IMG/VR virus record: IMGVR_UViG_3300040758_000214 | Coordinates: 32,001-96,000 of that record | Length of the DNA stretch: 64,000 nucleotides | Reading direction: 5' to 3' (one strand) | From: a virus | Shown: positions 6,260 through 32,543 of the stretch, piece by piece | How positions within the stretch are numbered: position 1 is the first letter of the stretch | How the letters are laid out: each line of letters starts with the position of its first letter | Translations under genes and position numbers: made by a program | The notes under the pieces: generated by a model | Database searches by the model: none | What the model saw: only the letters and a program-made list of their open reading frames with translations | What the model was told of the DNA's origin: nothing

Positions 6260-7051
6260 ATGAAACATACAATATATCAAGTAACAAATTTAATTGATAA
6301 TAAAATTTATATAGGTAAACATAGTACTAATAATATTAATGATTCTTACTTAGGATCAGGTGAATATTTGAATCGAGCAATTAAAAAATATGGCAAAGAA
6401 AATTTTAAAAAAGAAATTCTTTATATTTTTGATACAGAAGAAGAATCATTATTAAAAGAAATGGAAATAGTCAATAAAGAATTTGTATCTAGAAAAGATA
6501 CCTATAATGTAACATTAGGTGGTCGGGGTTCATTTTTTCATTTAAAAGGAATTCCAAAATCAGAAGAAACTAGAAAGAAAATAGGTGATTCATTCCGAGG
6601 AATTCCTAGACCTAAGGAAATTGGTGATAAAATAAAAGCTTCATTAACTGGTAGAAAAAGATCAGAAGAAACCAAAGAAAAACTTAGAAAACCTAAATCA
6701 GAAGAACATAAATTAAAAATGTCAATTAATAGAAAGAATATGAATTTAACTGGAGAAAGAAATCCATTTTTTAATAAACAACATTCTGAAGAATCTAAAA
6801 TTAAAATTGGGAATAGAGATTATTCCAAACAAAGTGGTAAAACCCATTATTTATCTAAAACTTATTTATTAATTTCTCCAAAGAATGAAGAATTTATTTT
6901 ATATGGAGGAGAAGTATCTAAATTCTGTAAATCAAATAAGTTGAGTGAGTCATTGCTTAGAAAGAATATAAATAAATCAGTTAAAATTAAAAATATCCAT
7001 AATTGTAAATATCCAAATACAGAAGGATATTCTTTAAATGTGATGGTCTAA
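6260..7051 (+). mobile_element. free-standing GIY-YIG homing endonuclease with NUMOD3 repeats
   Basis: TIYQVTN..KIYIGKH, YLGSG, YNVTLGG; repeated (H/K)SEE(T/S)K NUMOD3 motifs; opposite strand to neighbours. Confidence 0.9.
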
Positions 7052-13387: not shown

Positions 13388-14104
13388 ATGAAGTATTCAT
13401 TTGCTGCATTAGGAGAAAATATATTAACTCGTAAATTCGGAGGATCAGCTTCTACGGGTGCTGCGGAGCCATATATTTCTGGCTATTTTTTCGTCTGGTT
13501 TGACAGACTACCTAATAACCTTATTAACTATACTCAATTAGGAAATAGTGGTCTTTCCTCTCTTAGTGATTGCCAAAATATTTTAAGTGCAAGTTGTACA
13601 GGTTGTACGCCCCCAGGCGGCACTTTAAACAAGGTTGAATATACCGGACTAGGTGGTGTTAAGTGGGCAGTTCCTGGTCATATTGATTATCAAAATTCGG
13701 TATCCTTAAAATTCATTGAATTTTATAGAACTCCAATTCTTGATATTATGCATGGGTGGGTAAAAATGATTAGAGATTATAGAACTGGTACTACAGATCT
13801 TCAAGCTGATGATTCTGGTCAGGGATATACGAAAAATGATTACTCTGGGACGATATACTATTGGACTACAACTCCTGACGCAAAAAATGTTGAGTATTTT
13901 GCATGTTATGATGGATGTTTCCCTGCAAAAGATCCACAAGATTTATATCATGGTGATGTTGAAACTGTAGGAAGATTAGATGTTGAAATTGAATTTAACG
14001 TAGATTATATTTGGCATGAACCTTGGGTTAGAGAAAAATGTCAGAGTTTAGTTTCTGTATTCCAAGCAGCAAAGCAGACTGTTCAAAATTATCAGGAACC
14101 TTAA
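13388..14104 (+). CDS. tail tube protein (T4 gp19-like fold)
   Basis: Size, 'VPGHIDY..SVSLKFIE', 'YDGCFP', 'EIEFNVD' tube-like pattern; first gene of the structural operon. Confidence 0.65.
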   Translation: MKYSFAALGENILTRKFGGSASTGAAEPYISGYFFVWFDRLPNNLINYTQLGNSGLSSLSDCQNILSASCTGCTPPGGTLNKVEYTGLGGVKWAVPGHIDYQNSVSLKFIEFYRTPILDIMHGWVKMIRDYRTGTTDLQADDSGQGYTKNDYSGTIYYWTTTPDAKNVEYFACYDGCFPAKDPQDLYHGDVETVGRLDVEIEFNVDYIWHEPWVREKCQSLVSVFQAAKQTVQNYQEP

Positions 14105-14145
14105 TATTTACAATGTCAATATTTGGCATTAGGAGGAATTTATAA

Positions 14146-14838
14146 ATGGAACTAACTGGCATGAAAATAAATGAACAAGATATGGAATGGGCGTGCAAGC
14201 AATATTTACTTGATCAAATTCCTTCTAGTAAATATATTCAATAAAATTCAACAGTAGATCAAAGACAACAATTTAAAGAATGGATTAAAAAAGCATCTTT
14301 AAAAGAAATTTTAGTTATTATAGAACAAGATAGTAAAAATAATATGTATTTAAATAAGGGATGGAAATATATTTATGGAGTAGGTTTAGCTGCGGCATTA
14401 GGTGGAATGGTTGGGGCCGCATCTTCTTATACTAGGAAAGGAGATGCTCTAGCCGTAGGTTCTATGTTGGCTAGCGCATCTACATTATTATATTATTTTT
14501 ATAAACGAAAAAAAGATCCATGTCATCAAAAATGCAAAGATGCATCGACTACACATAAATTTGGGGAATTAGAAAGATCTTTAAGGTATCAAATATGTAG
14601 AACAGAGTGTTCTATAGTTGCTGCAAAAGATGTATTAAGGCAAGTAACAAGTCAAAAAGGAAAATGCAGTAGTACAGAAAAACCAGAAAAATGTTTAAAA
14701 TCTTTATCTAAATTAGAATTAAAATGGAGACGTAAAATAGAAAACTTAGAAGATATATTACGTGATCTTAAACATAGATTTTCTACAGGAAAAACTAAAA
14801 CATCACCTATTAAATTACAACCTGCTTTTAAAAGTTAA
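14146..14838 (+). pseudogene. Cys-rich family A paralog interrupted by in-frame TAA at 14242-14244
   Basis: ATG at 14146 with AGGAGG; MEWACKQ homologous to 17401/20052; in frame with ORF 14344..14838. Confidence 0.7.
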
Positions 14839-14854
14839 TGGAGATTAAACCCAA

Positions 14855-15610
14855 ATGAGTGCTATATCTGATTCCCTATTATTTCTTATCACATTACGCA
14901 AGACAATGTGTGAATTTATAGACAATTCTAAAATAAGTGATATTGATAAAGCTAAGGGTAAAAATTTTATAATGAATGAAGGTAGTGATTATGAGATTTT
15001 AACTTTAGCAGTAAGAGGACAAAGACCAACAGAAAAATATAATATAGTTGAAGAAAAGAAATTATTTGAAGATATTAAAAATTGTGTATCTAAGAATAGT
15101 GAAACTTTTAATAAACTATTATCTGAAAAAGTTGCAAAGGATTTTGCTAAAGATTTAACTCCATTATCTGAATATGGATTAACTTCTTGTGTTCCTATTA
15201 TGAATTTTATAATAGAACAACAAGTTTGGGGAAATGTTCAAAAAGCTGCAAGGGCTGAAAGATGGAAGGGAGTTGATGCAGGTATTGCAAAATTGAGGGC
15301 TACAAATGATATGTATGCTAAGAATAAAAAATTTAGCAAACAAGTTGGTGGAGCTTTATTAGCTGCTATGATTGCCTATGCGGCTTATAAAATATACAAG
15401 AATAAATTCAGTGCAGCAGCTAAAGCATGTAAAGGAAAGACTGGTCCTGAAAAAACTTTATGTATGAATAACTTTAAGGTTGCTGCAATTAAAGCACAAA
15501 TTGCTCAATTGAAGTCCGGTTCGTCTGGATGTAATTCATCTAAAGATCCTGTAAAATGTAAAGCTGTTATATTGGCTAAAATTAAGAAACTTGAAGGGAA
15601 ACTTAAGTAA
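14855..15610 (+). CDS. Cys-rich family B paralog (putative virion/internal protein)
   Basis: SLLF..RKT, NFIMNE.SDYEI, TM segment, AAKAC...C...C...C; paralog of 15641 and 16473. Confidence 0.75.
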   Translation: MSAISDSLLFLITLRKTMCEFIDNSKISDIDKAKGKNFIMNEGSDYEILTLAVRGQRPTEKYNIVEEKKLFEDIKNCVSKNSETFNKLLSEKVAKDFAKDLTPLSEYGLTSCVPIMNFIIEQQVWGNVQKAARAERWKGVDAGIAKLRATNDMYAKNKKFSKQVGGALLAAMIAYAAYKIYKNKFSAAAKACKGKTGPEKTLCMNNFKVAAIKAQIAQLKSGSSGCNSSKDPVKCKAVILAKIKKLEGKLK

Positions 15611-15640
15611 TTTCAATGTAGGGCGGGGGTTATACTTTAG

Positions 15641-16465
15641 ATGAATAATTCATTACTTTTTACATTAGCCATTAGGAGAACTTTGTGTGAGTTCCTCAGC
15701 TATAGTCAGTTAGACTTAAAGGCTAAGAAATATTCTAAACATTTTGTTATGTATGAAGCAACTGATTATGAAATTATGTCGTTATTAATGACCGGAGATT
15801 ATCCTGTTAAGAAGTATAACCCTCTCAAAGAAGAAAAGTTATATAATCAATGTAAAAATATTATCTTAGAAAACATATCTGAAATCTCACCTTATATAGA
15901 AAAATCAATTTTAAAAAATATTATCACTGAATTAGCTCCTATTAAAGGTTCGTCTAATGTTTTATTAAAAGAATATATTAATGAGCAAATACAAGTCAAA
16001 CATCAAATAGATCCCCAAGGAAGACCAAATTGGAAAGCAATTGCTGGTGCTGCGTTTACTGCGGGAATGGCTGCAAATGTGGGAAATCCTTTAGGTAAAG
16101 ATTTATATGAATATGGTAAGAAAAATGCTAGGCAGGGATTAGCATCTCTTATGTCATATTTAAAATCTACAAATGGCAAAATGGTTGGATCTGTAATGGC
16201 TGCATCTTTGATTGTATATGCTTCTATAATTATATATCATAAATATTTTTCAAATGCAGCAGTTACATGTAAAAATTTAAAAGGAAATGAGAAAGATCAT
16301 TGTGTTAAAAAAATAAAAATGAATGCTTTAAAAAATCAAATTAATACATTAAAACAAGGAAGTTCTGCATGTTATAGTAAAGAGAATCAAGACAAATGCC
16401 AAAGAGTTATTAAAATGAAAATTCTAAAACTCCAACTTAGATTACAAAAATTGGAGCGGAGTTAA
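15641..16465 (+). CDS. Cys-rich family B paralog
   Basis: Same motifs as 14855. Confidence 0.75.
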   Translation: MNNSLLFTLAIRRTLCEFLSYSQLDLKAKKYSKHFVMYEATDYEIMSLLMTGDYPVKKYNPLKEEKLYNQCKNIILENISEISPYIEKSILKNIITELAPIKGSSNVLLKEYINEQIQVKHQIDPQGRPNWKAIAGAAFTAGMAANVGNPLGKDLYEYGKKNARQGLASLMSYLKSTNGKMVGSVMAASLIVYASIIIYHKYFSNAAVTCKNLKGNEKDHCVKKIKMNALKNQINTLKQGSSACYSKENQDKCQRVIKMKILKLQLRLQKLERS

Positions 16466-16472
16466 ACATATA

Positions 16473-17390
16473 ATGAAAAATATTAAAGATTCAATGTTAT
16501 TTTTATTAATCACTAGAAAAACCATAAGTGATTTAATTGTTAGTGAATCTAATTTAAATCCTTCAGATAAAGTTTTAGCAAAAAATTTTATTATGAATGA
16601 AGCTACTGATTATGAAATTATGTCTGTATTAATGGAAAGTCAATTACCTAATGAACAATATAATGATATTAAAGAAGATAAATTATTTGAATCTTTAAAA
16701 AAATGTATATTAATAAATGAAAAAGTATTATCTAAATATATACCTAAAGAAACAATTCAATGTGTTTTAGAAATTGATTCAGTTTCTCAATATGGATTTT
16801 CTTCATCTATTCCTATAATGGAATATATGATTGAACAATATCAAGCTGATATGAGTGATGATGATTATCGTCATAGTGGTGGAAGTAATGTTGTAGGAAA
16901 AGCGGGCGAGGCAGGAATGACTGCTTTAATAATGAGGCCAAGAGGTGGATATAAACGAGCATTTACAAGATATAAAAATAGAAAATTACCAAAACAAATT
17001 GCAGCTGCAAAAGCATTACCGGCTAAAACAATGAATTTTTTAAGAACTGGAAGACAAGCTGCAATGAATGGAATTTCATCTGTTGTTAATTTTGCTAAAT
17101 CTGGTCCTGGAAAAGTATTAGGAATAGTTGCAATTGTTGCTTTAGTTGCTTTAGCTGCAAATAAAATTTATAGAGAAAAATTAAGTCAAGCAGCAAAAGC
17201 GTGTTCTAAATATACTGGCCCTGAAAAACAAAATTGTATGAGAGGATTTAAAAGAACAGCTCTTTCTGCTCAAATTGCTCAATTAAAAGCTGGATTAGCT
17301 GCATGTAAAGGAACAAATAATCCAGAAGGTTGCCAAAATAAAATTGCTAAAAAAGTAGCATCATTACAAAGGAAAATATCTAAAATATAA
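16473..17390 (+). CDS. Cys-rich family B paralog
   Basis: Same motifs as 14855. Confidence 0.75.
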   Translation: MKNIKDSMLFLLITRKTISDLIVSESNLNPSDKVLAKNFIMNEATDYEIMSVLMESQLPNEQYNDIKEDKLFESLKKCILINEKVLSKYIPKETIQCVLEIDSVSQYGFSSSIPIMEYMIEQYQADMSDDDYRHSGGSNVVGKAGEAGMTALIMRPRGGYKRAFTRYKNRKLPKQIAAAKALPAKTMNFLRTGRQAAMNGISSVVNFAKSGPGKVLGIVAIVALVALAANKIYREKLSQAAKACSKYTGPEKQNCMRGFKRTALSAQIAQLKAGLAACKGTNNPEGCQNKIAKKVASLQRKISKI

Positions 17391-17400
17391 AGAGGATAAT

Positions 17401-18102
17401 ATGGAACCTAAACTTGATAAGAAAGCTCTTGAATGGGCTTGTAAACAATTAATATTAACTTCTGCAAAAAATAGTAAATATTTAAAAGAAAATTCTGAAA
17501 GTAAAGAAAGAATATTATTTGCTAAATGGGTTAAGGGATTAACATATAATCAAACATTAGGAATTTTATTTGAGCAAAATTATAAACCAAATACTCAAAA
17601 AATTAGAGATATTGAAGACGCCTATGCTATATTATCATTATTAGGATTTGCTTCATATCTAGGAACAGGAGCTGCAACATTAAAAAATATATTTCAAGAT
17701 AGAACGGGTAGAGCTGGAATATATTTTGCATCACATATATTAACTACAGCTTCTATGATTTTATATTATAAATATAAACAATATAAAGATCCTTGTTATC
17801 AAAAATGTAAGAATGTTTTACCTGCGCATATTAGAAATAGATATGAAGAACGTCACAGTTTAGAGGATCTACCTGAATATAATGTTTGTACTACTAAATG
17901 CGCATTAGACGCTGCTATTAATATATTAAGACAAATTAAAGGAGAAAAAGGAAAATGTTCTAGAACAGAAAAACCAGAAAAATGTATAGAACGATTAAAT
18001 AAATTAGAAATAAAATGGACTGAAAAAGTTAAAGATTTAAAAGATAGTTTGATAAAATATGAAAAAGAAGCTAGAGAGGAAAGAGAAACTCGTAAATATT
18101 AA
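17401..18102 (+). CDS. Cys-rich family A paralog
   Basis: KLDKKALEWACKQ; DPCYQKC...C...C...KGKC..TEKPEKC. Confidence 0.75.
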   Translation: MEPKLDKKALEWACKQLILTSAKNSKYLKENSESKERILFAKWVKGLTYNQTLGILFEQNYKPNTQKIRDIEDAYAILSLLGFASYLGTGAATLKNIFQDRTGRAGIYFASHILTTASMILYYKYKQYKDPCYQKCKNVLPAHIRNRYEERHSLEDLPEYNVCTTKCALDAAINILRQIKGEKGKCSRTEKPEKCIERLNKLEIKWTEKVKDLKDSLIKYEKEAREERETRKY

Positions 18103-18128
18103 ATCAACCAACGAAAGGAAATCAAAAA

Positions 18129-18917
18129 ATGTTTAGAGGATTCAATTTAAAGTATCCGGAATACGAAGTAATCACACCTCAGACTAAAAGATCATTTACT
18201 TTGAGGTCATTGAATGTCAGTGAAGAAGAGAATATGAAAGGGAGTATGATGACTCCATTGAAAATTACGGAGCATCTTAATTCATGTATTTATGAAGTCT
18301 TAATTAAAAAGCCAGATGATATTACTGACTTTAAATCTTTTTTAACTAAGACTACAATTAAAGATAGAGAAGCTTTATTGTATGGTCTTTATCATATTAC
18401 ATATGAAGAGATTAGAAATTATGAAATAAAATGTGCAGCATGTAAAAAGGATTATCCTGTTACAGCTAAAGCATCTGATATGTTTGGATTCAATATTTAT
18501 CCTAGTGATGATAATATATTAGACATACGTATTAGAGTTGATCTTCCTATATCTAAAGGTATTTCAGTTTATATTAAACAACCATCTTTAGAAGATGAAG
18601 TTTCATCTTTAAAAAATTATGCAACTTTAGCTGGAACTAATATGGATATTATCACTCAAACATTAATAATTGATAGATTTGAACAAAGTACTGATTCACC
18701 TGACCCAATTATTTATGATCAACGTGGTGATATTATAGATGCATATAGAAGTTTACCTTCTAAAGACAGAAAAGAAATCAATGCTAAATATACTGAAAAT
18801 TTTGGTAAATATGGTATTGAATTAAAAATGAGAACTTTCTGTCCATCATGTTCCAATGAGGAGGTAATCAATATCGACCTTGTCGAAAACTTTTTTCGTA
18901 TGGTGTACACGGTATGA
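18129..18917 (+). CDS. baseplate hub assembly protein / tail chaperone (T4 gp26-like)
   Basis: YPEYEVITP...RSLNVSEE, two CxxC motifs, FF near the C-terminus; lies upstream of gp25. Confidence 0.7.
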   Translation: MFRGFNLKYPEYEVITPQTKRSFTLRSLNVSEEENMKGSMMTPLKITEHLNSCIYEVLIKKPDDITDFKSFLTKTTIKDREALLYGLYHITYEEIRNYEIKCAACKKDYPVTAKASDMFGFNIYPSDDNILDIRIRVDLPISKGISVYIKQPSLEDEVSSLKNYATLAGTNMDIITQTLIIDRFEQSTDSPDPIIYDQRGDIIDAYRSLPSKDRKEINAKYTENFGKYGIELKMRTFCPSCSNEEVINIDLVENFFRMVYTV

Positions 18918-19098
18918 TAATATAAGTGAGTTTAAGAAAAATTTACAAGAAAATATTTTTGCATGTAAAGAATTAACTGGAGAAGGATATATAGACATAA
19001 TGTCCTTACCTGTTGAAAGATTCTATGGTCTTATAAAATGGAAAACAGACTTAGAAAAAGATAAGCAAAAGATGATGAACGAAAAAATACAAAAATAG
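18880..19098 (+). CDS. gp51-like small baseplate assembly protein (possibly made by +1 frameshift)
   Basis: YIDIMSLPVERF resembles the small gp51-type partner; only a TTG start upstream of the conserved region. Confidence 0.55.
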   Translation: MSKTFFVWCTRYDNISEFKKNLQENIFACKELTGEGYIDIMSLPVERFYGLIKWKTDLEKDKQKMMNEKIQK

Positions 19099-19108
19099 GA
19101 TATAATAA

Positions 19109-19543
19109 ATGGCCTCAATTCTAGACAAATTTATTAATAACTCTATAGGTGCACGTGGTAGGATTACAGATTATACATCTACTATTACACCATCTGGAGA
19201 CTTTGATAGAATTTATGAATTAAATGCTATTTTAATGTCATGGAATACTATATTAATTACTCCATTAAGAAGTTATACATATGATCCTGATTTTGGTTCT
19301 GAGTTATATAAATATGTATTTGAACCGTGTGATGATTTTACAAAAGATGAAATTCAAAATGAGATTAAATTAAGATTAACAACATATGATGATAGAGCTT
19401 CTATTGAATCAATTGATATTTCATATTTTCCTAATAAAAAAGGATTCACTGTAAATATAATAGCAAATTATCAAGGAACTACTGGGAGTTTAAATACTCC
19501 TATAGATCAATCTACATATTACAATTTCTTGAGATCTCAATGA
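19109..19543 (+). CDS. baseplate wedge protein GpW/gp25 family
   Basis: ILITP..SY.YDPDFGSELYKYVFEP...YDDR. Confidence 0.85.
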   Translation: MASILDKFINNSIGARGRITDYTSTITPSGDFDRIYELNAILMSWNTILITPLRSYTYDPDFGSELYKYVFEPCDDFTKDEIQNEIKLRLTTYDDRASIESIDISYFPNKKGFTVNIIANYQGTTGSLNTPIDQSTYYNFLRSQ

Positions 19544-20040
19544 AAATATTCTATTATTTTGTATTAAAGAATTATCGTGGATTATTTCGTAAAAAGTTTG
19601 TTGGGAATACCCACTTATTCTTAATTCCTAGAGCTGGTGATGATTATCTATATTTAGCCCTTTTAGGAAATATTGTAGATGAAGATAATTCATATGCTTG
19701 CGTATTAATATCAAGAATTCCTGATGATTTATTAGATGAAATAATTAATGGTGAACATAAACATTTTGGTGAAAGATTTGAATTAATTGATGAAATAAAA
19801 GTGAACACTATTAATGAGAATAAAGGTGAATATGAAATAAAAGTATTAAGTAAAAGTCAGCATATTCTTTCCGATTTAGAAATGATATATAATGAAGACT
19901 TAAGTTCAAATTCAAAAAGGATTTATATTATTAAAGGTAAATTAAATTTATCAACAGAAGATGTTGGATTAGATTCAACACTTAGAATTGATGCTTATAA
20001 AAAGTTAGCATTAGTTTCTAATAAAAATAGGAAAGTCTGA
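19540..20040 (+). CDS. hypothetical protein
   Basis: ATGA overlap with the gp25 stop. Confidence 0.65.
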   Translation: MKIFYYFVLKNYRGLFRKKFVGNTHLFLIPRAGDDYLYLALLGNIVDEDNSYACVLISRIPDDLLDEIINGEHKHFGERFELIDEIKVNTINENKGEYEIKVLSKSQHILSDLEMIYNEDLSSNSKRIYIIKGKLNLSTEDVGLDSTLRIDAYKKLALVSNKNRKV

Positions 20041-20051
20041 TCGGGGAGGAT

Positions 20052-20630
20052 ATGATGACTAAAGAAATTAAACTTGATAAAAAAGCTCTTGAATGGGCTT
20101 GTAAACAATTAATGATAAACTCAGCTAAAAATGATAAAGTAATTAAAGAAAGTACTTCATTATCGGAACATGTAAAATTCATTAGTTGGATTAATGAATT
20201 ATCTTATATTCAAACCTTAATGTTATTCTTTGATAATAAATATATTAAAGTTAATGAACAACATGTAGCTGAGCCTCAGATTAGACAAAAAGAGTCTAAA
20301 ATTAAAACTGCTCTAAAATATGGATTGGCTGGTGTTGCTGGAGGTATGGTTAATAATGGAACAGGATTAGCTGCAATGTTAGTTTATTATTTTTATAGAA
20401 GATCAAATGATGTTTGTCACAATCAATGTAAAACATCAGCTGATAGTAAGAAATGCCAATATATTTGCAGAGTTACTGCAGCTAATCAAGTTTTAAATAA
20501 TATTAAATCTGAAATAGGTAAATGTAATAAAATGTCTAAACCTGATAAATGTAGAAATAATTTACAAAAGATGGCTAATAAATGGAACAAAATATTGATG
20601 CATAATAAGGCTAAGTTGGATCAATTATAA
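20052..20630 (+). CDS. Cys-rich family A paralog
   Basis: KLDKKALEWACKQ; Gly-rich TM segment; six-Cys C-domain. Confidence 0.75.
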   Translation: MMTKEIKLDKKALEWACKQLMINSAKNDKVIKESTSLSEHVKFISWINELSYIQTLMLFFDNKYIKVNEQHVAEPQIRQKESKIKTALKYGLAGVAGGMVNNGTGLAAMLVYYFYRRSNDVCHNQCKTSADSKKCQYICRVTAANQVLNNIKSEIGKCNKMSKPDKCRNNLQKMANKWNKILMHNKAKLDQL

Positions 20631-20633
20631 ATA

Positions 20634-21362
20634 ATGGAGGATAGAAAACAAATGGAAAAGAAAGTGGTAAAAAAGGAAGTTAAGAAAGAAGTAAAGAAAC
20701 CTGTTCAAGAATCAAAAGAAATAGTTCTTGATAAAAAGGCTTTAGAATATGCTATTAGAAAAATGTTATTCTCCTCTATTTCTGAGAGTAAAATTCTAAG
20801 AGAAAAATTATCTTTTGATGACCATATTAAACTTTGCGAATGGACTACTAAACTTACTTATGAAAATTTAATCCTTGTTTATTTAGGTGAGAATCCTAAG
20901 TCTAAATTAAATGAACAAGATGCAGGTAAAATTAGAGATTTTGAAGGAAGAGCTAAAACCGCTATGAAATATGGCTTTGCTGGTCTTGCCGGTGGATATG
21001 GTATTAAAAAGGCTGCTGGTAAAATAGGTGTTGCATCTAAACTTCCTGGTGCAACTAAAACTATTGGCGCAGCAATGTTGGCATTTTATATATTTAGAAA
21101 ATTTACAGATCCATGTTTTAGAAAATGTTTAGGTACAGGCACTTTAGGTGTAATGGGCAAGAAACATAAACTTTGTAAATATGAATGCCAAATTAATGCA
21201 ATAAAAACTGTATTAGGGCAGCTCAGAAGTCAAAAGAGTGTATGTGCTAAAACTCATAATCCAGAAAAGTGCCTAAGGCAATTATCTAAGCTCGAAATTA
21301 AATGGGCTAAAAAATTACAAGAAACTTTAGCTAAATTTAATGAAACCCGTGCAAAGATATAA
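20634..21362 (+). CDS. Cys-rich family A paralog
   Basis: LDKKALEY; KYG.AG.AGG; DPC..KC...PEKC. Confidence 0.75.
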   Translation: MEDRKQMEKKVVKKEVKKEVKKPVQESKEIVLDKKALEYAIRKMLFSSISESKILREKLSFDDHIKLCEWTTKLTYENLILVYLGENPKSKLNEQDAGKIRDFEGRAKTAMKYGFAGLAGGYGIKKAAGKIGVASKLPGATKTIGAAMLAFYIFRKFTDPCFRKCLGTGTLGVMGKKHKLCKYECQINAIKTVLGQLRSQKSVCAKTHNPEKCLRQLSKLEIKWAKKLQETLAKFNETRAKI

Positions 21363-21897
21363 ATCAATAAAGTCATTTATATTAGAGACAATTTCTAAGA
21401 GTAAAATATTACGAAAGAAATTGTCTCTATCAGAACATCTAAAATTGTATAAATGGGCTACACAATTAAATGAAGATCAACTATGTGATTATTTATTTGA
21501 ATCTAATCATATTCCTAATTACACAGTTCAAAAAATTTTAGATGTAGGATTGGCTGCTGCAGTAATAGCACCTATTCCTGGGAGTGAATGGTTATTTTTA
21601 GCTGTAAGATATTTAGAAGAAAATTTTAGTAAACAGTGTTTGAAAAAATGTGAATCAAGAAAACATGAAAAGCAAATTTGCTATTGGAGCTGTCATCTGG
21701 ATTCAATAATTAAAGTTAGAACAATTATAGAACAAGAATATAATAAATGTCGTTATGAACCATTAGAAAAATCAAAAAATAAATGTTTTAAAAAACTAGG
21801 ATATTTATTAGGTAGATGGAAAGATAGAGAATTAAAAATTAAAAATAAAGTAGATATAATGCAAAGAATGAAAGTCATTAATAGACTACGGAGATAA
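21340..21897 (+). CDS. Cys-rich family A paralog (divergent)
   Basis: SKILRKKLSLSEHLKL..W shared with 20634/20052; six-Cys C-domain. Confidence 0.7.
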   Translation: MKPVQRYKSIKSFILETISKSKILRKKLSLSEHLKLYKWATQLNEDQLCDYLFESNHIPNYTVQKILDVGLAAAVIAPIPGSEWLFLAVRYLEENFSKQCLKKCESRKHEKQICYWSCHLDSIIKVRTIIEQEYNKCRYEPLEKSKNKCFKKLGYLLGRWKDRELKIKNKVDIMQRMKVINRLRR

Positions 21898-21902
21898 TCA
21901 TA

Positions 21903-22544
21903 ATGCAATTGTATAACAGAATATATGATTACATTAAAGACTATCAAAGTTTAGTATATGACACATATAGCAAACATGTAGTTGCATATCCTATTACATA
22001 TTATCATTTAGATATAACTACAGTTGTATGGGATGATAAGAACCTCATGGGCGGATACTATGAAAGGATTGGTGAATTATCAGGATTGAAATGGGATAAA
22101 ATATTATTGCTTCCTGTTTATTATACTGAAGAAATGATTGCTCAATGGAATGCTGAAGATATAGGTTATGTATCATTTACTGAAACTTATGCCATTATTC
22201 CTGAGACTTATGGATTTATACCTTATCCAAATGATGTAATAAAAATAGATCAATTGTATCAACCACAACCTGATAATAAATATACTATTTATACATGTAC
22301 TGGAGTTTCAAAAAGTACAACAGATAAAGTTTTTTATAAATTACATTTTGAGGTTGAACAATCTAGAACTCCAGCTGATATGGATTTACAATTATCAAAT
22401 ACTTATACATGGTTAGATTATACTAAAAAGATTCATACTTTAAATGATGCAACATTCTTAACAAATATGTTATCTAAAAATCAACAATTGAAGGAAAATT
22501 CAAAAATAAAGTATGATAAGAATGTAGGATATTATTTTTTATAA
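21903..22544 (+). CDS. putative virion structural protein (neck/head-closure-like)
   Basis: Structural operon context; beta-rich composition; family not firmly recognised. Confidence 0.4.
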   Translation: MQLYNRIYDYIKDYQSLVYDTYSKHVVAYPITYYHLDITTVVWDDKNLMGGYYERIGELSGLKWDKILLLPVYYTEEMIAQWNAEDIGYVSFTETYAIIPETYGFIPYPNDVIKIDQLYQPQPDNKYTIYTCTGVSKSTTDKVFYKLHFEVEQSRTPADMDLQLSNTYTWLDYTKKIHTLNDATFLTNMLSKNQQLKENSKIKYDKNVGYYFL

Positions 22545-22554
22545 GAAAGGAAAA

Positions 22555-22929
22555 GTGATGAACAAATTAATTTCATTATTTATTCTATTATTTATAATGG
22601 GATCTTATAATTTAGTTTATGCAATAGATGGATTTATATCTGCAGAAATTGATTCAGATGTTTATGGTAAACATTTAGCTCCAGATTTTCAAGGGCAATT
22701 AGGACAAGTGTTTGGTGATTATAGAATTTATGGAGCTTTTGAAAGATGTAATGAAACTCCAATATTTACTAATAGTGATGAACATTACAGACTTGGAATT
22801 GAATATAATCATTTTGATAACTTAAAATTAGAAGCTGGGCCTGGATTATATCACGGACGAGCTTTTTTATTTGGGAAAATTACATACTCATTTGATACAT
22901 CGAGGAAAGGAGATGCCAAAACTAAATAA
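22555..22929 (+). CDS. secreted protein, possible small outer-membrane beta-barrel
   Basis: Signal peptide (..VYA/ID), amphipathic beta strands, GKITYSF near the C-terminus. Confidence 0.5.
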   Translation: MMNKLISLFILLFIMGSYNLVYAIDGFISAEIDSDVYGKHLAPDFQGQLGQVFGDYRIYGAFERCNETPIFTNSDEHYRLGIEYNHFDNLKLEAGPGLYHGRAFLFGKITYSFDTSRKGDAKTK

Positions 22930-23263
22930 TTGGATTGATAAAATTTGTATTACTATATCTGATTTATTAGGAACTAATTTTTGTATATTTATATTTATAC
23001 TTATAGCATTTGTTCCTTTATATTATCAAACACCAAAAACAATATCAGAATGGCAAAATTGGTTAAGCCAAACATGTATTCAATTAGTCGCTCTTGCAGT
23101 ATTACAAAAAGGAACTAAAATTGAAGGTAATCGTACATATAATATGCAAAAAGAAACTCATGATACAGTAATGAATGAATTTGCTGAAGTTAAAGAAATG
23201 CATGAGTTCTTACTGAAAGAGATAAAAGAAACTAAAATATATTGTAAAGGATGCAAGAATTAG
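22913..23263 (+). CDS. DUF1003-like membrane protein
   Basis: WIDKI...GT..CIFIF; WLSQ..IQLVAL; ATG at 22913 preceded by purine-rich GAGGAAAGGAG. Confidence 0.55.
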   Translation: MPKLNNWIDKICITISDLLGTNFCIFIFILIAFVPLYYQTPKTISEWQNWLSQTCIQLVALAVLQKGTKIEGNRTYNMQKETHDTVMNEFAEVKEMHEFLLKEIKETKIYCKGCKN

Positions 23264-23308
23264 CAACAAACTATCCTTAGTATTTTTATAAAATTTATTC
23301 GATTTGCT

Positions 23309-23492
23309 ATAGGTATTTCTTGATGTATTTTTAACATTTTAGTTATAGCAACAAACTAAAATAGAATAAAGAAGTAACATATCATTAAATGTTTGTTGTT
23401 CAAAAATATGTACTAAAATATAAAATCGTACGTTTTTCCATAGGCGTTTCTTGATTTATTTTTAACATTTTGAATTTAGCACACAACTAAAA
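23309..23492. repeat. imperfect 53-bp direct repeat (23309-23361 and 23440-23492)
   Basis: 43/53 identical by manual alignment; partial third copy TAGCAACAAACTA at 23261-23273. Confidence 0.8.
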
Positions 23493-23517
23493 ATATTTTT
23501 AGAGGTTAAAGACCAAA

Positions 23518-23694
23518 ATGAGTAAATTTAAAACAATTGTTGAGGCTTTAATTGCATCATCAAATTATATACTAAGAGACATAGAAATTACTGATGATAA
23601 GATAGTTGCCGATTCTGGTAAAAAAGTTATTGCTAAAATTGAACTTGCAGTTGACACTCTTTTAAAAATAAGAAAAGAAGATAAGGATAAATAA
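23518..23694 (+). CDS. small hypothetical protein (58 aa, not in ORF track)
   Basis: AGAGG RBS, ATG at 23518, MSKFKTIVEALIASS...KDK*; stop 3 nt before the gp6-like start. Confidence 0.6.
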   Translation: MSKFKTIVEALIASSNYILRDIEITDDKIVADSGKKVIAKIELAVDTLLKIRKEDKDK

Positions 23695-23697
23695 ATA

Positions 23698-26205
23698 ATG
23701 GCAAGTACTCCTACGACTGACACACAGACCAGTATTTCTAATCAAGTATATTTATCCCGTGATAATATCCGTAATCAAATAATTGAATTAGCTCAAACTT
23801 ATCTAGATTTAAAAGATGTTGATTTAACAAAGTCTTCTTTCTTATCTTTTATAATTAATGTAATGTCTACATTAACATCCAATCTTTTATTTTATGAAGC
23901 AAGTGTATTTAGAGAATTCTTTTTAACGCAAGCACAGCTTCCCTCATCGGTATTAAATTTATCGACCTTTATAGGATATACACCAAAACTTGCATCGTAC
24001 TCAGTGGCAGAATTATTGGTTACAGTACCATTAACTTTTGATAGTTCTAATATAACTTTTGATATTCCATCTCAATTTAATTTTTATGCAAATGATTTAA
24101 CCTTTCAAACATATTTTGATTCTTTAGTTACTGTAACCAATAATAATTCTGCAACTATACTTTGCACTGAGAATAATAAAATATTTAATTTACCAGTATA
24201 TATAGATACAACATCTACAAATACTCTTTCATTTATATTACCTGTAAATCAATATCAAACTGTAGTTCAAGAATTTCAATTAGATTCTGACATACAGACT
24301 TATCAATTTGTCTCATTGGATGTTCCATTTTCAGGACAAATTGCAGATATTTTAGTTGAAGTAAATTATCCAAATAGTTTAGCATGGATTACATATACAC
24401 AATTTAATAGTTTATATTTAATGGCTGCTACAGATTTAGGATATACAATAAAAAGGACAACCTCTGGTGTAACATTGAATTTTGGAAATGGTTTAATTGG
24501 ATTCCAACCTATTCCCGGTTCTTCAGTAAGAGTTACTATTGAATTAACAGAAGGTGAAAATGGAAATGTAATTGCTGGTTCTATATCTCAAGGGGATAGA
24601 TTATATACTCAAAGTGATAATGTTACAGAATTGGTTAGTTATACAGTTTCTAATCCAACTTCATCTAGTGGCGGAGCAGATGAGGAATCTTCTGATCAAA
24701 TTAAATCAAATGCAATTAAAAATTTAGTATCTATGAATAGATTAGTTTCAGAAACTGACTATTTGTATGCAGATGTAGTATTACAAACTTCACCAATAAC
24801 TACACCATTTCCTGTATTAAAAAGATCAGATGTTAAAATTAATGAGATTCAATTATATAGTGCTATTAATTATTTAAGTGGAATAGTTCCTACAAGAAAT
24901 TTAGTTTATAATACAAATACTGGAAATTTAAATATTCCAAGAGGAACTATTATAAACGATAATGGAACTAATTTTTATACTTTATTTGATTTAAATGTAG
25001 ATTTAATAAATAGTTGTACTTATTATAATTATACAGTTTATCAAATTACTCAGGTTGTTTCATTATTATCAAGTTATGGATCTACATATAATTTAGTTGC
25101 AAATGCTTTAACGATTACTAAAAATTTAGATTCTTCTGTTACATTAGATTTAGGTTATCAATCTACAGAATCTGATTATCAAACTGCATCATGTACGATG
25201 ACTATTCAACAAGGAAATCTTAGTTATAGTTTTTCCAATGATTATAATAATAGCCAATTCACTTATACATTTCCATCTTATTTAAATGTACCTGATGGTA
25301 GCTTAACTTTTATTTTTACAATATCTCATAATAATACTACAATATCTCAGTATTCTGTTAATTCAATTATTAGACAAGATTTAAGTCAATTTATGTTATC
25401 CAATACTTTAATAGATGGAACAAGTGTTATTATATATGATATTCCTGGAATTGAACAAGATTATTATGATGACTTATCTACAGTTTCATCTAAAAGAGAT
25501 TTTGAATTAAATGTATTACAATCAATGTTAACTTCATTTAATTTCTCTAATTATAGAATGATGACAGATTTTACAAATATTAAATTTACAAATACATCTG
25601 GTTTAATGATGAATATGCAATTAAATACTACAACACAAAAAGATGTAAAAGATATTTATTTGACTGCAGTTCCTTCTAATCCAACTCTTGGTGATAGATA
25701 TATTGTAACAGGAGCAGAAGGTGGAGCATGGTCTGGACAAAATTGGACTATTGCTCAATGTATTCATACAAGCCCAACATCATGGTCATTCCAAACATGT
25801 TCTACAGATGATATAGTCTATGTTACAAATAAAGGATTAAAATATATTTTTAGTGAAGGAACTTGGGTTCTTCCAAATTATCAAATACCATTACAAATTT
25901 CATTAGAAGTATTTAGATCTCCAATTTATTTTGGTGGAGATAATGATTTAGCTAATGCAATCACAACTGCATTATTAACTGCATTTAGTTCTAGATTTGG
26001 ATCCAATATTGAATTATATAGATCCGAAATAATTTCAATTGTTCAATCCATAGATGGTGTAAACCATTGTAGATTAATTACTCCAGCTTCTAATATTTTC
26101 TTTAATTTTAGTATAGATAATTTTACTCAAGACCAATTATTAAATTATGGACCTGAATATGTATTCTTTACAGCAGATGATATTACAGTAAAGGTCATAC
26201 AATAA
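23698..26205 (+). CDS. baseplate wedge subunit (T4 gp6/baseplate J-like) with DUF2793-like insertion
   Basis: EFFLTQAQ..SV, FGNG..G..P, GGADEES..IK.NA, LVS..DY; internal P..GDRYIV..GAW segment. Confidence 0.8.
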   Translation: MASTPTTDTQTSISNQVYLSRDNIRNQIIELAQTYLDLKDVDLTKSSFLSFIINVMSTLTSNLLFYEASVFREFFLTQAQLPSSVLNLSTFIGYTPKLASYSVAELLVTVPLTFDSSNITFDIPSQFNFYANDLTFQTYFDSLVTVTNNNSATILCTENNKIFNLPVYIDTTSTNTLSFILPVNQYQTVVQEFQLDSDIQTYQFVSLDVPFSGQIADILVEVNYPNSLAWITYTQFNSLYLMAATDLGYTIKRTTSGVTLNFGNGLIGFQPIPGSSVRVTIELTEGENGNVIAGSISQGDRLYTQSDNVTELVSYTVSNPTSSSGGADEESSDQIKSNAIKNLVSMNRLVSETDYLYADVVLQTSPITTPFPVLKRSDVKINEIQLYSAINYLSGIVPTRNLVYNTNTGNLNIPRGTIINDNGTNFYTLFDLNVDLINSCTYYNYTVYQITQVVSLLSSYGSTYNLVANALTITKNLDSSVTLDLGYQSTESDYQTASCTMTIQQGNLSYSFSNDYNNSQFTYTFPSYLNVPDGSLTFIFTISHNNTTISQYSVNSIIRQDLSQFMLSNTLIDGTSVIIYDIPGIEQDYYDDLSTVSSKRDFELNVLQSMLTSFNFSNYRMMTDFTNIKFTNTSGLMMNMQLNTTTQKDVKDIYLTAVPSNPTLGDRYIVTGAEGGAWSGQNWTIAQCIHTSPTSWSFQTCSTDDIVYVTNKGLKYIFSEGTWVLPNYQIPLQISLEVFRSPIYFGGDNDLANAITTALLTAFSSRFGSNIELYRSEIISIVQSIDGVNHCRLITPASNIFFNFSIDNFTQDQLLNYGPEYVFFTADDITVKVIQ

Positions 26206-27314
26206 TGAATATATTACTTCAAAATGCTAATATTGATGATAGAAAATTAAAGTCATATCTCATTAATGTTGTAGCCAATGAATTGACTAATCTTTCTGAG
26301 CCATGTTATTTTCCGAAGTTAAAAGTCCATTATTTTCAAATTTTACATCTTTGTAATTTAACTGAAAATGAAGTAAAAGATTCAGTTCAAAGATTCTATA
26401 AAGACACCCCTATTATAGAAAAAGAGTGGAAACTCGAACAGAATGTTTATTCTACTTTATTAATTGCCTTAATGAGTTATTATCTAAATAAAAAAGATAT
26501 ACAAACATACAATTCTTTAATGTTATATTTTGTTGTAATGATGTATACTAATCTTATGTTAAGTCATATAAGATATTGTAATCCAGATATATTTAGATAT
26601 ACTTTAGAGCATTTAAATAAAACTCATTTATTTAGTAGAGAAAAAACTATATCAGGCGCATTATTTTTTATTGGTAGAGAAATGTCTAGAAGATATCCAA
26701 ATACATTTCAAGAGTTAAATGATCCAATGTTGGTTAGTAAATTCATAAGAGAGTGTAGACATAGAATTTCTCAAAGTGTTAAAAGTTTTAGAGAATTATA
26801 CTATAGAACTAAAGAAGAAGGAGTTGGATTTAAAAATCCAATGGAAGATGAAGAAGGAACTGAAATTAGTCCCATTGATAGAAAAGGTGAAGTTATAGAA
26901 AAAGTAGTAAAAAAAATAACCATGTATAAAGAAGTAGATAGGAAAGCCCTTGAAGATGCAAGAAAGATAACAAAAATACGAGAATCTTTAGCTACAATGA
27001 TAGTTCATGAATTATCCGATATAAAGTATTCCGATGATGTTAAGATGATCCTAGAACTATTTGTGAAGGATTTAAAGGATGTTAAATCTGTATGTGATAA
27101 AGAATTTTATAAGTATGTCCGGTCTCTAATGGCAATTAAAAAGACTCTACAAAAAGTATTTTTTAAACAACAAGTCGTTGTCTTACTTGAAAAAATATTT
27201 ACAAGATTAGATTATATGCAAGCCTTTCATAATTTTACTACACAAACTCAGTTCTTTATTTTATCCTTCCTTGCTTTTTATATCACCATAGTATTTAGAA
27301 ATTTTGTTTGTTAA
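26205..27314 (+). CDS. conserved jumbo-phage helical protein (putative virion protein)
   Basis: Long ORF coupled to gp6-like gene; function not recognised. Confidence 0.5.
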   Translation: MNILLQNANIDDRKLKSYLINVVANELTNLSEPCYFPKLKVHYFQILHLCNLTENEVKDSVQRFYKDTPIIEKEWKLEQNVYSTLLIALMSYYLNKKDIQTYNSLMLYFVVMMYTNLMLSHIRYCNPDIFRYTLEHLNKTHLFSREKTISGALFFIGREMSRRYPNTFQELNDPMLVSKFIRECRHRISQSVKSFRELYYRTKEEGVGFKNPMEDEEGTEISPIDRKGEVIEKVVKKITMYKEVDRKALEDARKITKIRESLATMIVHELSDIKYSDDVKMILELFVKDLKDVKSVCDKEFYKYVRSLMAIKKTLQKVFFKQQVVVLLEKIFTRLDYMQAFHNFTTQTQFFILSFLAFYITIVFRNFVC

Positions 27315-29537: not shown

Positions 29538-32500
29538 TTAAAATAGATTACCATGAGCAACATTATGTAATTCTGCATCAAATGGATTTTGATGTTGCCC
29601 ACTATTATTTGTAGTATTTATATTTTTTATAGATGATGCAACATTATTTGTGCTTACCACTAAATTATTTCCAAGTGTTGTTAAATTTCCCATTGCTGCA
29701 GCTTGAAATTTTTCATTTGAATTTTTCATAGCGTCTATCTGCAACGATTCTTTAGCAACATGCATATCTACTAATTCTTTTTTAGAGAATGCATTATAAT
29801 ATTTTTTAACTTTTTCTATATATTGGCGTGTTTCTTTTACTGGATGAGAAGCTCCTCTTCCCCCACCATTATAATAGCCTAAAGCTTTATCTAAATTACC
29901 ATGATATTTGTTTAATAAATATAATAAAAATTTAGTTCCCCCCCTTACATTTTGTACCGGATCATATGCATTTGTGACGCCCAGTTGCCTTGCAGTAGGA
30001 GGCATTAATTGCATTAATCCCTGGGCTCCTCTACTAGATGTAGCATTTGGGTTTCCCCCACTCTCCGCTTGAATGACGGCTTTTACTAAATCACTACCAT
30101 TAACTCCCCAATTTTTAAAGTCAAATGTTTTACCAAATCCTAGATCATCAATACTCCATCCTTTTTTTCCAGTCCTAGCAGCTGGATTTTTAGAAGCAGG
30201 TGCATTTGGAGCAGGTCTCATATTATTAGGAACTGCACCATTTCCAATATTAACTTCAGGAAATAATTTAGAAAATTGAGATAACCATTCACCACCTTTC
30301 CATCCAATTATTGCTCCTCCTAATATACCCATTGGATTCCCACCAGTGGCAACAGCTCCCAAAGATGCACCAATTACAGCCCCTTCTATTTTCATAGATC
30401 GTTTACTTAAAAAACTAAAAGTAGATTGAACAACATCTTCAATTGTATCAACCGGATGTTGAATAACTTTCATAGCTCTCATTGCAATACTTTCTATTCC
30501 TTCCCACATTCCATTCAATGATTTAGCAATTCTTTCAGGTCCAATATATCCAAATATTCCACCTATTAAAGCTCCAACAGGAGGCCCAAATGGGGGAGCC
30601 AACATTCCAATGACCATACCTCTCATTGCACCAAAGAATGCACCTTCCATTTTTCCTAAGAATCCATGGAATCCTCCTTTAGATTGACCATAATCTCCAC
30701 CACCTAAATATCCACCTAAAGTAGAGAAACTTTTTTGAGCACCAGTTGCTTTACCACCAAACCATTCATTAGACTTTCCCTCGCCAGCAAAGGCATTCAT
30801 TAGGGAATCTACAATTCCTAATATTCCAGCTCCTTTTAAACCACCTCTAGCAATTGCACCTTTATTATTCCATAGACCTTTTGCTCCACCCCATAATCCT
30901 TTACCTAAAAATTTTGCTCCGGACCATGCCATTTTACCCATAGCTAAAGGTATAGTCCACTTAAAGAATTTTAAAAGTTTAAATATTTTTTCTCCGCCCC
31001 AAAATCCAGCCTTGAATATAGGACCTAAAAATGGTATTCCTCCTAAGAAACCTTTTACTCCTGAATATAATGCCATTATCATTAAACCTAGATCACTAAA
31101 GAAACCTTTACCTTTTTTATACATAGTATGAACACCTTCTTTAGTTCCTTCGGTTGCATCTTGAATTTTCTTTAATCGTTTATCCATTGTACTATTTTTG
31201 GCAACATCTATATATTCCGCATCAATATATCCGGCTCCACCTGTCAATAATTTTTGACCGCCACCAATTTGACCATATTTTCCTCTTCTAAATTTATTTG
31301 CTATCCAACCAAACATTCCGCCTAAACCTATTGCTGAGGCTACGGCTCTAATTCTTTGATAATTTGTATATGTTTGATTCCCAGGAGGTGCAACATCTTC
31401 ACCTGTAATTTTTTCACTTAATCTTCTTAAGTAGAAAATCATTTGGTCATATCTTTCCATACTTCTTACATAAGTTATAGCTAAAATATTGGCCATATTT
31501 TCTTGAACATTTGTGGAATGTGGTAATTCTCTTTCATACCTATTTCTAACTTTGAATAAGAATTTTGGTATTTTATTAAATACTGAATCTAAGACATGTA
31601 ATCCTGTTGCTACTTTTCTAAAGAATGGATTTTGCATTACATATTTAATTAAGTGAGATTTAAGATCAAGTCCCATTCCAGTCATTGCTAATTTTAAACT
31701 AAATAATGTATTATAAATTTTAGATAACCAACCACCTTTATCTAAGCTAACTTTACTATTCAATAATTGTTCTGTTGAATATTTTCCTTTTTTAAATAAT
31801 TTACTTATTGGAGAAACTACTTCACCAGCATGAACGTATACAACTCCACCTTTAGATATTAATCCTCCGGATTGTAATTTTGGAATATTTTTTGCTCTAA
31901 TACTTGCATTGGAAGGTGAATCAAAATAATCATCGGATTCATTTAATCCTTGTTTTTTTCTACGTCTTCTTGCTCTAAATTCTTCAAATGTAATTGCGGA
32001 TTTAAATCTTTCCCAACCATATCTTATATATTGTCCTATACCAGATAAAGCTCTACCAATATTTTGTTTCATTCTTTCAGCTGCATTTCTAAATACATCT
32101 GTTTCCATAAATTTAGCTGCAAAATATCCAAAGATAGGTGTTGATTGTGATAGAGCCATTGCAACCATATTTTGTTTATTAAAACTCACATCTTGACTTA
32201 TAGCTCTACTATATTGAGCAATTGCATCTTTTGTAGATCTAGCGGTTGCGGATGTAATTTTTATAACACCTCTGGATAATGTATCAATGGTCATACTAAA
32301 TTTACTTAATATTTTAGTTACAGATGATGTAACTTCTTTAACACTTCTATCATTATATCCGGCTTGGTCAATGTATTTATAACTCGATCCCATTGAGCCA
32401 ATATTAGCGGAGGACCTATTAATATCTCTTCTGGTATCCATATTCATTCTATTAATATTCGCAGCGACAGAATTAATATTTGCTACTTCTGCTATTTCAG

Positions 32501-32543
32501 CTTTGGATAATGTAGTCTTTACTGGTTTTTTTGGAGGAGCCAT
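29538..32543 (-). CDS. tape measure protein with C-terminal lytic transglycosylase (SLT) domain
   Basis: Long Gly/Ala-rich helical protein; [21 protein letters not shown]...YNGG SLT motifs. Confidence 0.85.

Follow-up and report, generated by a model that had tools for sequence, protein, structure and literature searches.

Cysteine-paired paralogs in the tail operon of a distant T4-like giant phage: candidates for tail-loaded proteins

What is the function of eight related, cysteine-paired proteins whose genes lie among the tail and baseplate genes of an environmental giant phage? The question is raised by a stretch of 64,000 nucleotides, called the window in the following, which comprises bases 32001-96000 of the 143-kb IMG/VR contig IMGVR_UViG_3300040758_000214 (G+C ~27%, completeness 46% according to CheckV). 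The nearest annotated relatives as judged by the terminase, i.e., Flavobacterium phage immuto, Microcystis phage Mel-JY01, two uncultured huge phages, PA5oct and cyanophages, share only ~30% identity, and the contig is therefore assigned to a distant T4-like lineage. By terminase, portal, capsid protein and protease, its clade is T4-like. The initial annotation of the window regarded the eight proteins, encoded between positions 14146 and 21897, as capsid-packaged precursors that are cut by a T4-type prohead protease and ejected at infection, perhaps to build a DNA-entry channel or compartment or to act as bacteriocin-like effectors. Our analysis leads to a different reading, which we favor tentatively: the proteins may be loaded into the tail by interchangeable N-terminal address domains and share a cationic, membrane-active C-terminal module (C-module) that would be released at infection. 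Presence in the virion, disulfide formation, release and membrane action are all features that we infer.

Eight paralogs in two cysteine classes within the tail operon

The eight genes encode homologous proteins of 185-305 residues (excluding an interrupted first copy), in which four cysteine columns are invariant in 8/8 sequences of the alignment. A profile of the eight, an approach suggested by the initial annotation for counting paralogs genome-wide, matched the 143-kb contig at exactly these eight places and no more. The distinction of two classes is likewise borne out. Class A, with five copies, follows the pattern C-x3-C...C-x3-C...C-x8-C and has six cysteines, while class B, with three copies, has four (C-x10-C-x22-C-x8-C), which align with cysteines 2, 3, 5 and 6 of class A. 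In the following list, hydrophobicity is given as the Kyte-Doolittle value (KD) over 19 residues, and loci and genomes of relatives are given by L and G numbers.

14146..14838, + strand: class-A paralog with an in-frame TAA at 14242-14244; the profile match contains this one TAA; N-terminal part at 14146-14241
14855..15610, + strand: class-B paralog, 251 residues; N-terminal domain 1-121, disordered basic linker, hydrophobic helix, four-cysteine three-helix C-module 166-250 with a charge of +15
15641..16465, + strand: class-B paralog, 274 residues; hydrophobic helix with KD 2.01; positional ortholog L001:306-1106 (57% identity)
16473..17390, + strand: class-B paralog, 305 residues; hydrophobic helix with KD 2.19; positional ortholog L001:1110-2015
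17401..18102, + strand: class-A paralog, 233 residues; twin C-x3-C plus C-x8-C; last copy before the hub gene; homologs P0002 and P0003 at 49-52% identity
20052..20630, + strand: class-A paralog, 192 residues; first copy of the second slot, behind the gp25-like gene and a gene for 166 residues
20634..21362, + strand: class-A paralog, 242 residues; Lys/Glu-rich N-terminal extension; ortholog L010:15399-16205 (41% identity)
21340..21897, + strand: class-A paralog, 185 residues; 23-nucleotide overlap with the preceding gene; ortholog L010:16198-16749 (45% identity)

The first of the genes is interrupted. The frame starting at 14146 is preceded by a strong Shine-Dalgarno sequence (AGGAGG) and stops after 32 codons. 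The downstream open reading frame (ORF), 14344-14838, retains the hydrophobic segment and the six-cysteine module, and its ATG at 14344 has no ribosome-binding site. As L001 and L010 lack an ortholog in this place, the gene is probably a decaying extra copy; the TAA, read from one metagenome assembly, could reflect a pseudogene, an assembly error or read-through. The copies in the window match their positional orthologs best and not the neighboring paralogs (for the copy at 16473, 65% identity to L001:1110-2015 versus 34% to its paralog in the window), which argues that the copies are old and individually retained.

The interleaving of the family with tail and baseplate genes, as described initially, is confirmed. 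From 13388 to 27314 every long ORF resides on the + strand. The tail-tube-like gene is followed by five of the family genes, the hub gene, a small ORF, the gp25-like gene and the gene for a protein of 166 residues. Then come the remaining three family genes, a gene for 213 residues, two small ORFs and the gp6-like gene. The relevant genes are as follows.

13388..14104, + strand: tail-tube-like gene; phrog_21400, phrog_21257 and phrog_45; mean column identity 63% in alignment A4
18129..18917, + strand: gp26-like baseplate hub gene; PF12322, 45.6 bits versus a cut-off of 24.5
19109..19543, + strand: gp25-like wedge/sheath-initiator gene; phrog_261 (E 1.1e-18) and phrog_43 (E 9.4e-14); PF04965 (26.4 bits, cut-off 27.2) and PF10934 (26.3 bits, cut-off 32.9), both below the curated cut-offs
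23698..26205, + strand: gp6-like wedge gene with a DUF2793 domain; phrog_219 and PF10983
29538..32543, minus strand: protein of 1001 residues; hydrophobic stretches rich in Gly, lytic transglycosylase domain at the C-terminus; phrog_2013, phrog_669 and phrog_1506

Gaps between the family genes amount to 7-30 nucleotides, a Shine-Dalgarno sequence precedes most copies, and no convincing + strand terminator was found within the cluster. Judged from these sequence features, the paralogs appear to be co-transcribed with the tube, hub and wedge genes in a single + strand operon.

The same arrangement is seen in relatives. A class-B profile retrieved 61 related IMG/VR loci, the 10-kb flanks of which were inspected. 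In 58 of these the tube gene lies ahead of the family and in 50 the hub gene lies behind it, the remainder being cut by contig ends. The constant order is tube, at least one copy of class B, hub, gp25-like gene, optionally the gene for 166 residues, optionally further family copies, the gene for 213 residues and the gp6-like gene; it recurs in six further metagenome loci that were compared (L001, L002, L003, L006, L008 and L009). The first slot, between tube and hub, is always filled, and the second, behind the gp25-like gene, is occupied in about a quarter of the longer loci. In loci read ORF by ORF there are at least 1-5 gene copies per slot, with more tblastn matches in one locus. Class-B proteins of relatives share 25-57% identity with those of the window, compared with ~45-76% for tube and hub. 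Such fast divergence and variable copy number, as in ejected or internal phage proteins, count for a tail-loaded role.

In the relatives, the parts of the proteins also occur in other combinations. L001:2028-3482 encodes a class-B/class-A fusion of 484 residues, and the product of L010:12757-13434 is a hybrid of a class-A N-terminal domain and a class-B C-module. Together with relatives in the head gene cluster that share the C-module only (see below), these proteins indicate that the modules are interchangeable. Longer fusion proteins that contain the C-module were searched for and not found, which is weak evidence.

Against 1.84 billion representatives, a profile search assigned 1,722 clusters to the family at E<=1e-3 and 806 at E<=1e-10. 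Members of both cysteine classes are seen all through the family, and in many of the class-B proteins the number of cysteines is exactly four. Pfam and PHROG searches with the eight proteins, 103 homologs and ten long family members yielded sub-threshold noise only, sequence profile searches of the PDB gave no significant match, and a profile search detected no family member in five of the nearest annotated relatives by terminase (immuto, Mel-JY01, PA5oct and the two uncultured huge phages). By these sequence comparisons, the proteins belong to a large, undescribed and modular family that is restricted to one uncultured clade of giant phages distantly related to T4 and that lacks matches in Pfam, PHROGs, the PDB and the cultured phages searched.

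A position close to tube and hub genes calls to mind two well-known types of tail protein, and neither fits. The protein of 1001 residues encoded at 29538-32543 is likely a tape measure or tail lysin. Its gene adjoins the large terminase gene (33443-35092), lies ~8 kb from the paralogs on the opposite strand, and its product showed no homology to the family in hhalign comparisons. Because a separate tape-measure-like protein exists, the paralogs must be additional to the tape measure, and the possibility that the family itself, with its compact folds of 185-305 residues, acts as tape measure was rejected. Tail assembly chaperones of the lambda G/GT or P2 E/E' type were also rejected, given the distance and strand of the tape-measure-like gene and the basic nature of the proteins; a frameshift signal was not searched for.

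Two neighbors within the operon deserve mention. The gp26-like hub protein contains two invariant CxxC pairs (C102, C105, C238 and C241) in 36 homologs, which suggests a zinc ribbon. Between the family genes and the gp6-like gene reside ORF 22555-22929 and ORF 22871-23263. One encodes a clear signal peptide followed by a mature part rich in beta structure, and the other a membrane segment. A similar secreted ORF of 113 residues (L074:8070-8411) adjoins extra family copies in a relative.

Domain anatomy and predicted structure

Family proteins consist of three parts: a helical N-terminal domain (N-domain; ~120 residues and acidic in class B, ~60 residues in class A), a flexible, variable linker and a C-module of ~90 residues, in which an Ala/Gly-rich hydrophobic helix is followed by cationic helices with cysteine pairs flanking the turns. 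Homologs were aligned for both classes (60 class-B and 43 class-A proteins). For class B, the median charge is negative in the N-domain (-8) and positive both in the linker (+8) and in the C-module of 91 residues (+15); the linker measures 41-147 residues, with a high content of Gly, Ala, Lys, Ser and Thr, and near-invariant positions of the N-domain include E42, D45, Y46, P58 and E67. The four cysteines are invariant in 60/60 class-B proteins, and the six of class A are invariant or nearly so. In the window copies the net charge of the C-module ranges from +7 to +16.

The domain anatomy proposed initially, with a helical N-domain, a hydrophobic helix and a cationic cysteine-paired domain, thus holds in outline, with one restriction. 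The hydrophobic segment is of moderate hydrophobicity, carries Lys on both flanks, and reaches transmembrane grade (a threshold of KD 1.6) in only three of the eight copies (15641, 16473 and 21340) and in 71 of 156 family proteins.

AlphaFold2 models, run with the family alignments, have confident helical N-domains and helical C-modules, and in this respect the structure prediction that the initial annotation had suggested as a check supports it. The model of the class-B protein encoded at 14855 (predicted local distance difference test score, pLDDT, 83.8; predicted template modeling score, pTM, 0.81) is all-helical, with a folded part 1-121, a disordered part 127-162 and helices 166-191, 197-228 and 232-250. 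In that of the class-A protein encoded at 17401 (pLDDT 88.0, pTM 0.83), a linker joins the all-helical N-domain to a C-module that is likewise helical. The high pTM despite a disordered linker of ~35 residues points to packing of the N-domain against the C-module, by which the hydrophobic helix would be covered. In class B the charges of the two partners, acidic N-domain and basic C-module, are complementary.

In the class-B model, C192/C203 sit at one end of the three-helix bundle and C226/C235 at the opposite end, and a single four-cysteine metal site was rejected on these grounds. In the class-A model, the cysteines of the twin C-x3-C lie at the ends of helices 106-136 and 158-183, such that C132/C136 face C163/C167 on antiparallel helices, while C186/C195 flank the next turn. 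From these placements we infer that the pairs may be intramolecular disulfide staples, two in class B and three in class A. In motif and model, the class-A arrangement is reminiscent of the small Tim proteins (Tim9, Tim10) and plant alpha-hairpinins, in which C-x3-C...C-x3-C is likewise placed on two antiparallel helices and the hairpin is stapled by two nested disulfides; class B keeps the inner pair only. Context, size and the extra C-x8-C pair set the family apart, and matches to Tim10 at the twin C-x3-C (E 0.4-0.8) and to a vicilin-derived hairpin (E 0.7-0.9) are not significant and reflect the shared motif only.

This hairpin, along with the cationic and hydrophobic character of the module, is what speaks for the bacteriocin-like effectors of the initial annotation, i.e., antimicrobial proteins released from lysed cells. 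Such a role is highly improbable, because there is no leader peptide, immunity gene or export signal or gene, and because the genes are fixed in a structural operon, with the tail-operon position found in every relative.

The cysteine pairs also bring up the possibility that the proteins act in the membrane of the infected cell, with the hydrophobic helix as a signal anchor and an oxidized cysteine domain in the periplasm, serving the timing of lysis, superinfection exclusion or membrane-attached baseplate assembly. An oxidizing compartment would be the easiest explanation for invariant cysteine pairs. The signal-peptide and membrane ORFs of the window operon (22555-23263) point in the same direction, as do extra family copies in G004 and G002 that lie near secreted or lipoprotein-like ORFs, small membrane proteins and, in one case at ~6 kb, an endolysin gene. 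However, most of the hydrophobic segments lack the strength expected of a membrane span. The part that would have to be exported has a net charge of about +15, the helix is bordered by Lys on both sides, and in the models (pTM above 0.8) N- and C-domains are packed together, which is unexpected for domains on either side of a membrane. The constant position, moreover, is in the structural operon and not in a lysis cassette, where holins and spanins would be expected. We consider this explanation improbable.

The proposed cleavage site and a sister branch in the head cluster

A central element of the initial annotation was a candidate prohead-protease site of the form hydrophobic-x-E-(Q/S) at the boundary behind the N-domain of all eight proteins. 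Strings of this form are indeed present in 8/8, though not at one homologous position. IIEQ, INEQ, MIEQ, LFEQ and LFES occupy homologous columns, while the corresponding column reads FFDN in the copy at 20052 and LGEN in that at 20634, where a downstream NEQ had been picked. In the ORFs of this genome [ILVMF]-x-E-[QS] occurs 0.23 times per 100 residues and [IL]-x-E 1.4 times.

Lack of conservation in orthologs, named in the initial annotation as a refuting result, overturns the site for the family as a whole. The Glu is retained in 15 of 60 class-B and 11 of 43 class-A homologs, and the site is kept only in the closest relatives (L001 and L002). Nearby Glu residues are better preserved, namely in P-[IVL]-[LM]-E of class B (46/60) and in I-R-D-F-E of class A (35/43). 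These mean little, since control windows are equally rich in the motif: [IL]-x-E is found at the junction in 47 of 59 class-B proteins, and five control windows taken from the N-domain contain it in between 19 and 49 of ~60 proteins. A motif of three residues in related Glu/Leu-rich helices cannot carry the inference of cleavage. As the Glu is not conserved and the controls are equal, we drop the claim of a protease site for the eight proteins.

No prohead protease gene was detected in the 10-kb flanks of the tail-module loci (61/61). The T4-type enzyme that had been assumed does exist in the clade. In G001, a complete genome of 312 kb, PF03420 (Peptidase_S77) reaches 41.4 bits; the cut-off is exceeded there and in G003, and G002 has a match as well. 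The domain was not found in the 46%-complete contig that contains the window. G001 and G003 have no family match near the protease gene, and the complete G001 has tail-module copies only. Matters are different in G002, where two family proteins flank the protease between the portal and capsid genes, and family members reside at the same location in L083 (five copies), L084 (three) and L085 (four). These proteins have four cysteines exactly, except for one copy in L084 with six, and net charges of +12 to +18. In an hhalign profile comparison with tail class B the C-module proved common to both (probability 100, E 9.5e-40, 98 columns), while the N-domains did not align. The tail-slot branch is universal in the clade and the head-cluster branch is not. 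The head clusters of L071, L072, L077 and L083-L085 have a conserved order. The portal gene comes first and is followed by the gene for a very acidic, scaffold-like protein, whose C-terminal helix region is conserved, then by those for the protease, for two small coiled-coil proteins (of 96-102 and of 137-139 residues) and for the capsid protein.

Could the family then be packaged in the capsid by an N-terminal propeptide, cut by the prohead protease after hydrophobic-x-Glu and ejected with the DNA? There is precedent in other phages. T4 gp67, gp68 and the basic internal proteins, the latter equipped with N-terminal targeting peptides, are directed to the prohead core and cut by gp21 after L/I-X-E (PMC9026906). 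The SPN3US paralogs gp53 and gp54 lose propeptides of 125 and 137 residues (PMC10052503), and ejection or inner-body proteins of the phiKZ-like phages in general are paralogous, have propeptides of 111-254 residues that are cut after Glu, and are delivered into the host (PMC10052503, PMC5694885). The head-cluster branch, with two to five proteins of the same C-module beside a protease, sits in the very neighborhood that holds gp67, gp68 and the basic internal proteins in T4. In the short members encoded behind the protease the leader, of ~13 to 26 residues, terminates in Glu (LQE-V, QTE-P, QTE-I and VDE-V), and the N-termini of the capsid proteins offer L-x-E within the first 9-16 residues (LQE-V, LTE-V and LME-A). 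Among the longer head-cluster members, 17 of 18 have [IL]-x-E after a conserved LLxTG motif (alignment A6). For this branch a capsid-packaged, processed form is plausible by analogy, because of the gene context and not because of the motif.

For the eight proteins of the window the same idea is not supported, given the unconserved and partly shifted site, the position of the genes between tube, hub and wedge genes, the distance from any protease gene and the different N-domains of the two branches. Furthermore, when the two alignments are compared by eye, the place of L-T-E in the head-cluster proteins is taken by the consensus P-x-E-K-Y-N in tail class B. T4 internal-protein genes lie partly outside the head cluster, which softens the argument from position. 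Capsid packaging with proteolytic maturation is rather unlikely as the explanation of the eight proteins.

A further explanation draws on both branches. The proteins could be adaptors for assembly only, with the basic helical hairpin binding the acidic inner face of the tube (or the capsid shell in the head branch) and removal before or during maturation, akin to the C-termini of scaffolding proteins or the T domains of tail chaperones. The universal occupation of the slot between tube and hub is well accounted for in this way, and so is the location of the head-cluster members beside an acidic scaffold-like protein and the protease; in kind, the basic helix-loop-helix C-module resembles the coat-binding end of the P22 scaffolding protein. 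However, invariant cysteine pairs at helix turns make little sense in a reducing cytoplasm, and a chaperone would not usually be expected to vary in copy number and diverge fast. The family is basic, in contrast to the acidic tail chaperones known, and is not encoded next to the tape-measure-like gene. We regard such adaptors as unlikely.

Tail loading weighed against related systems

The reading that we tentatively prefer, loading into the tail, assigns the role of address and shield to the N-domain and that of the active part to the C-module. This division rests on the modularity of the proteins, their tail position, compact folding with complementary charges, reuse of the C-module and fast divergence. 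The N-domain would dock the protein in the assembling tail, either in the hub cavity or in the tube lumen, and would shield the hydrophobic helix. Upon contraction of the sheath the protein would leave the virion, and the cationic, hydrophobic C-module could then act at the host inner membrane or on the entering end of the DNA. An elaboration, which is distinctly doubtful, would treat the C-module as a kind of warhead whose destination is the lumen or hub of the tail and, in some phages, also the core of the capsid, with the paralogs assembling in the inner membrane after contraction to form a conduit for DNA.

Several observations weigh against tail loading. Invariant cysteine pairs would not oxidize in the cytoplasm, where tails assemble, and no gene for an Erv1/ALR or DsbA-like (Thioredoxin_4) protein was found in five clade genomes, one of them complete. 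As a membrane span, the hydrophobic helix of most members is no more than borderline. Fold searches with both models (PDB by Foldseek, BFVD, VIA-align wide) gave only generic helical-bundle or hairpin matches that barely covered the N-domains, the best values (Foldseek E >= 0.19, VIA Z <= 8.9) lying within the stated noise for helical proteins. A collection of cultured phages contained no match to the region, the gp6-like protein or a class-B protein in DNA and protein searches. Gene position is indirect evidence, since internal-protein genes of T4 are scattered and not all located in the head cluster. Finally, two relatives have extra copies away from the tail genes, at L074:5256-9271 (G004) and L075:5337-6905 (G002). 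These extra copies adjoin a peptidase gene (phrog_16701; papain-like by reading of the sequence) and small secreted, lipoprotein-like or membrane ORFs, and one set lies ~6 kb from the endolysin gene (phrog_315) mentioned above.

By analogy, the family is closest in kind to phage internal and ejection proteins. With the internal proteins of T4 it shares small size, basic character and fast-evolving paralogs, the removal of a targeting peptide at L/I-X-E and the DNA-coupled ejection being features of T4, and its head-cluster branch resides in the same neighborhood of portal, protease and capsid protein. The differences are substantial: there is no sequence or PHROG similarity, the eight genes belong to a tail operon, and the candidate cleavage site is unconserved. 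In addition, the family has large folded N-domains, a hydrophobic helix and invariant cysteine pairs, none of which, to our knowledge, occurs in the T4 proteins. The phiKZ/SPN3US ejection proteins differ in that they are capsid proteins of an unrelated lineage with an A/S-X-E motif, while the protease of the clade studied here is T4-type; homology to these families was not found in the Pfam and PHROG searches with the eight proteins and 103 homologs.

T5 Pb2 and T7 gp14-16 contain Gly/Ala-rich hydrophobic segments and are proposed to be released to form or prime a path for DNA through the inner membrane. The family resembles these tape measure and membrane-inserting ejection proteins in such segments and in the location of its genes near tube and hub, but unlike tape measure proteins its members are short, compact and arrayed as paralogs.

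In a whole clade of environmental giant phages, the tail module includes this family as a constant component, and the active-looking module of the proteins is reused in a head-core cluster. The topic bears on the passage of DNA through the inner membrane in contractile-tailed phages and on virion proteins that are sent ahead. If the proteins are tail-borne and released, they would constitute a new class of ejection proteins with an address-plus-payload design, which might lend itself to the loading of tails or heads with cargo. The invariant cysteine pairs raise the question of how and where a protein of a phage particle becomes oxidized.

As a minor observation, a homing-endonuclease gene (phrog_314) is located at 6260-7051 of the window, and in relatives endonuclease-like ORFs appear to be inserted between conserved structural genes (L048:14043-14867 and 17399-18385; L011:12699-13379 and 16012-16890).

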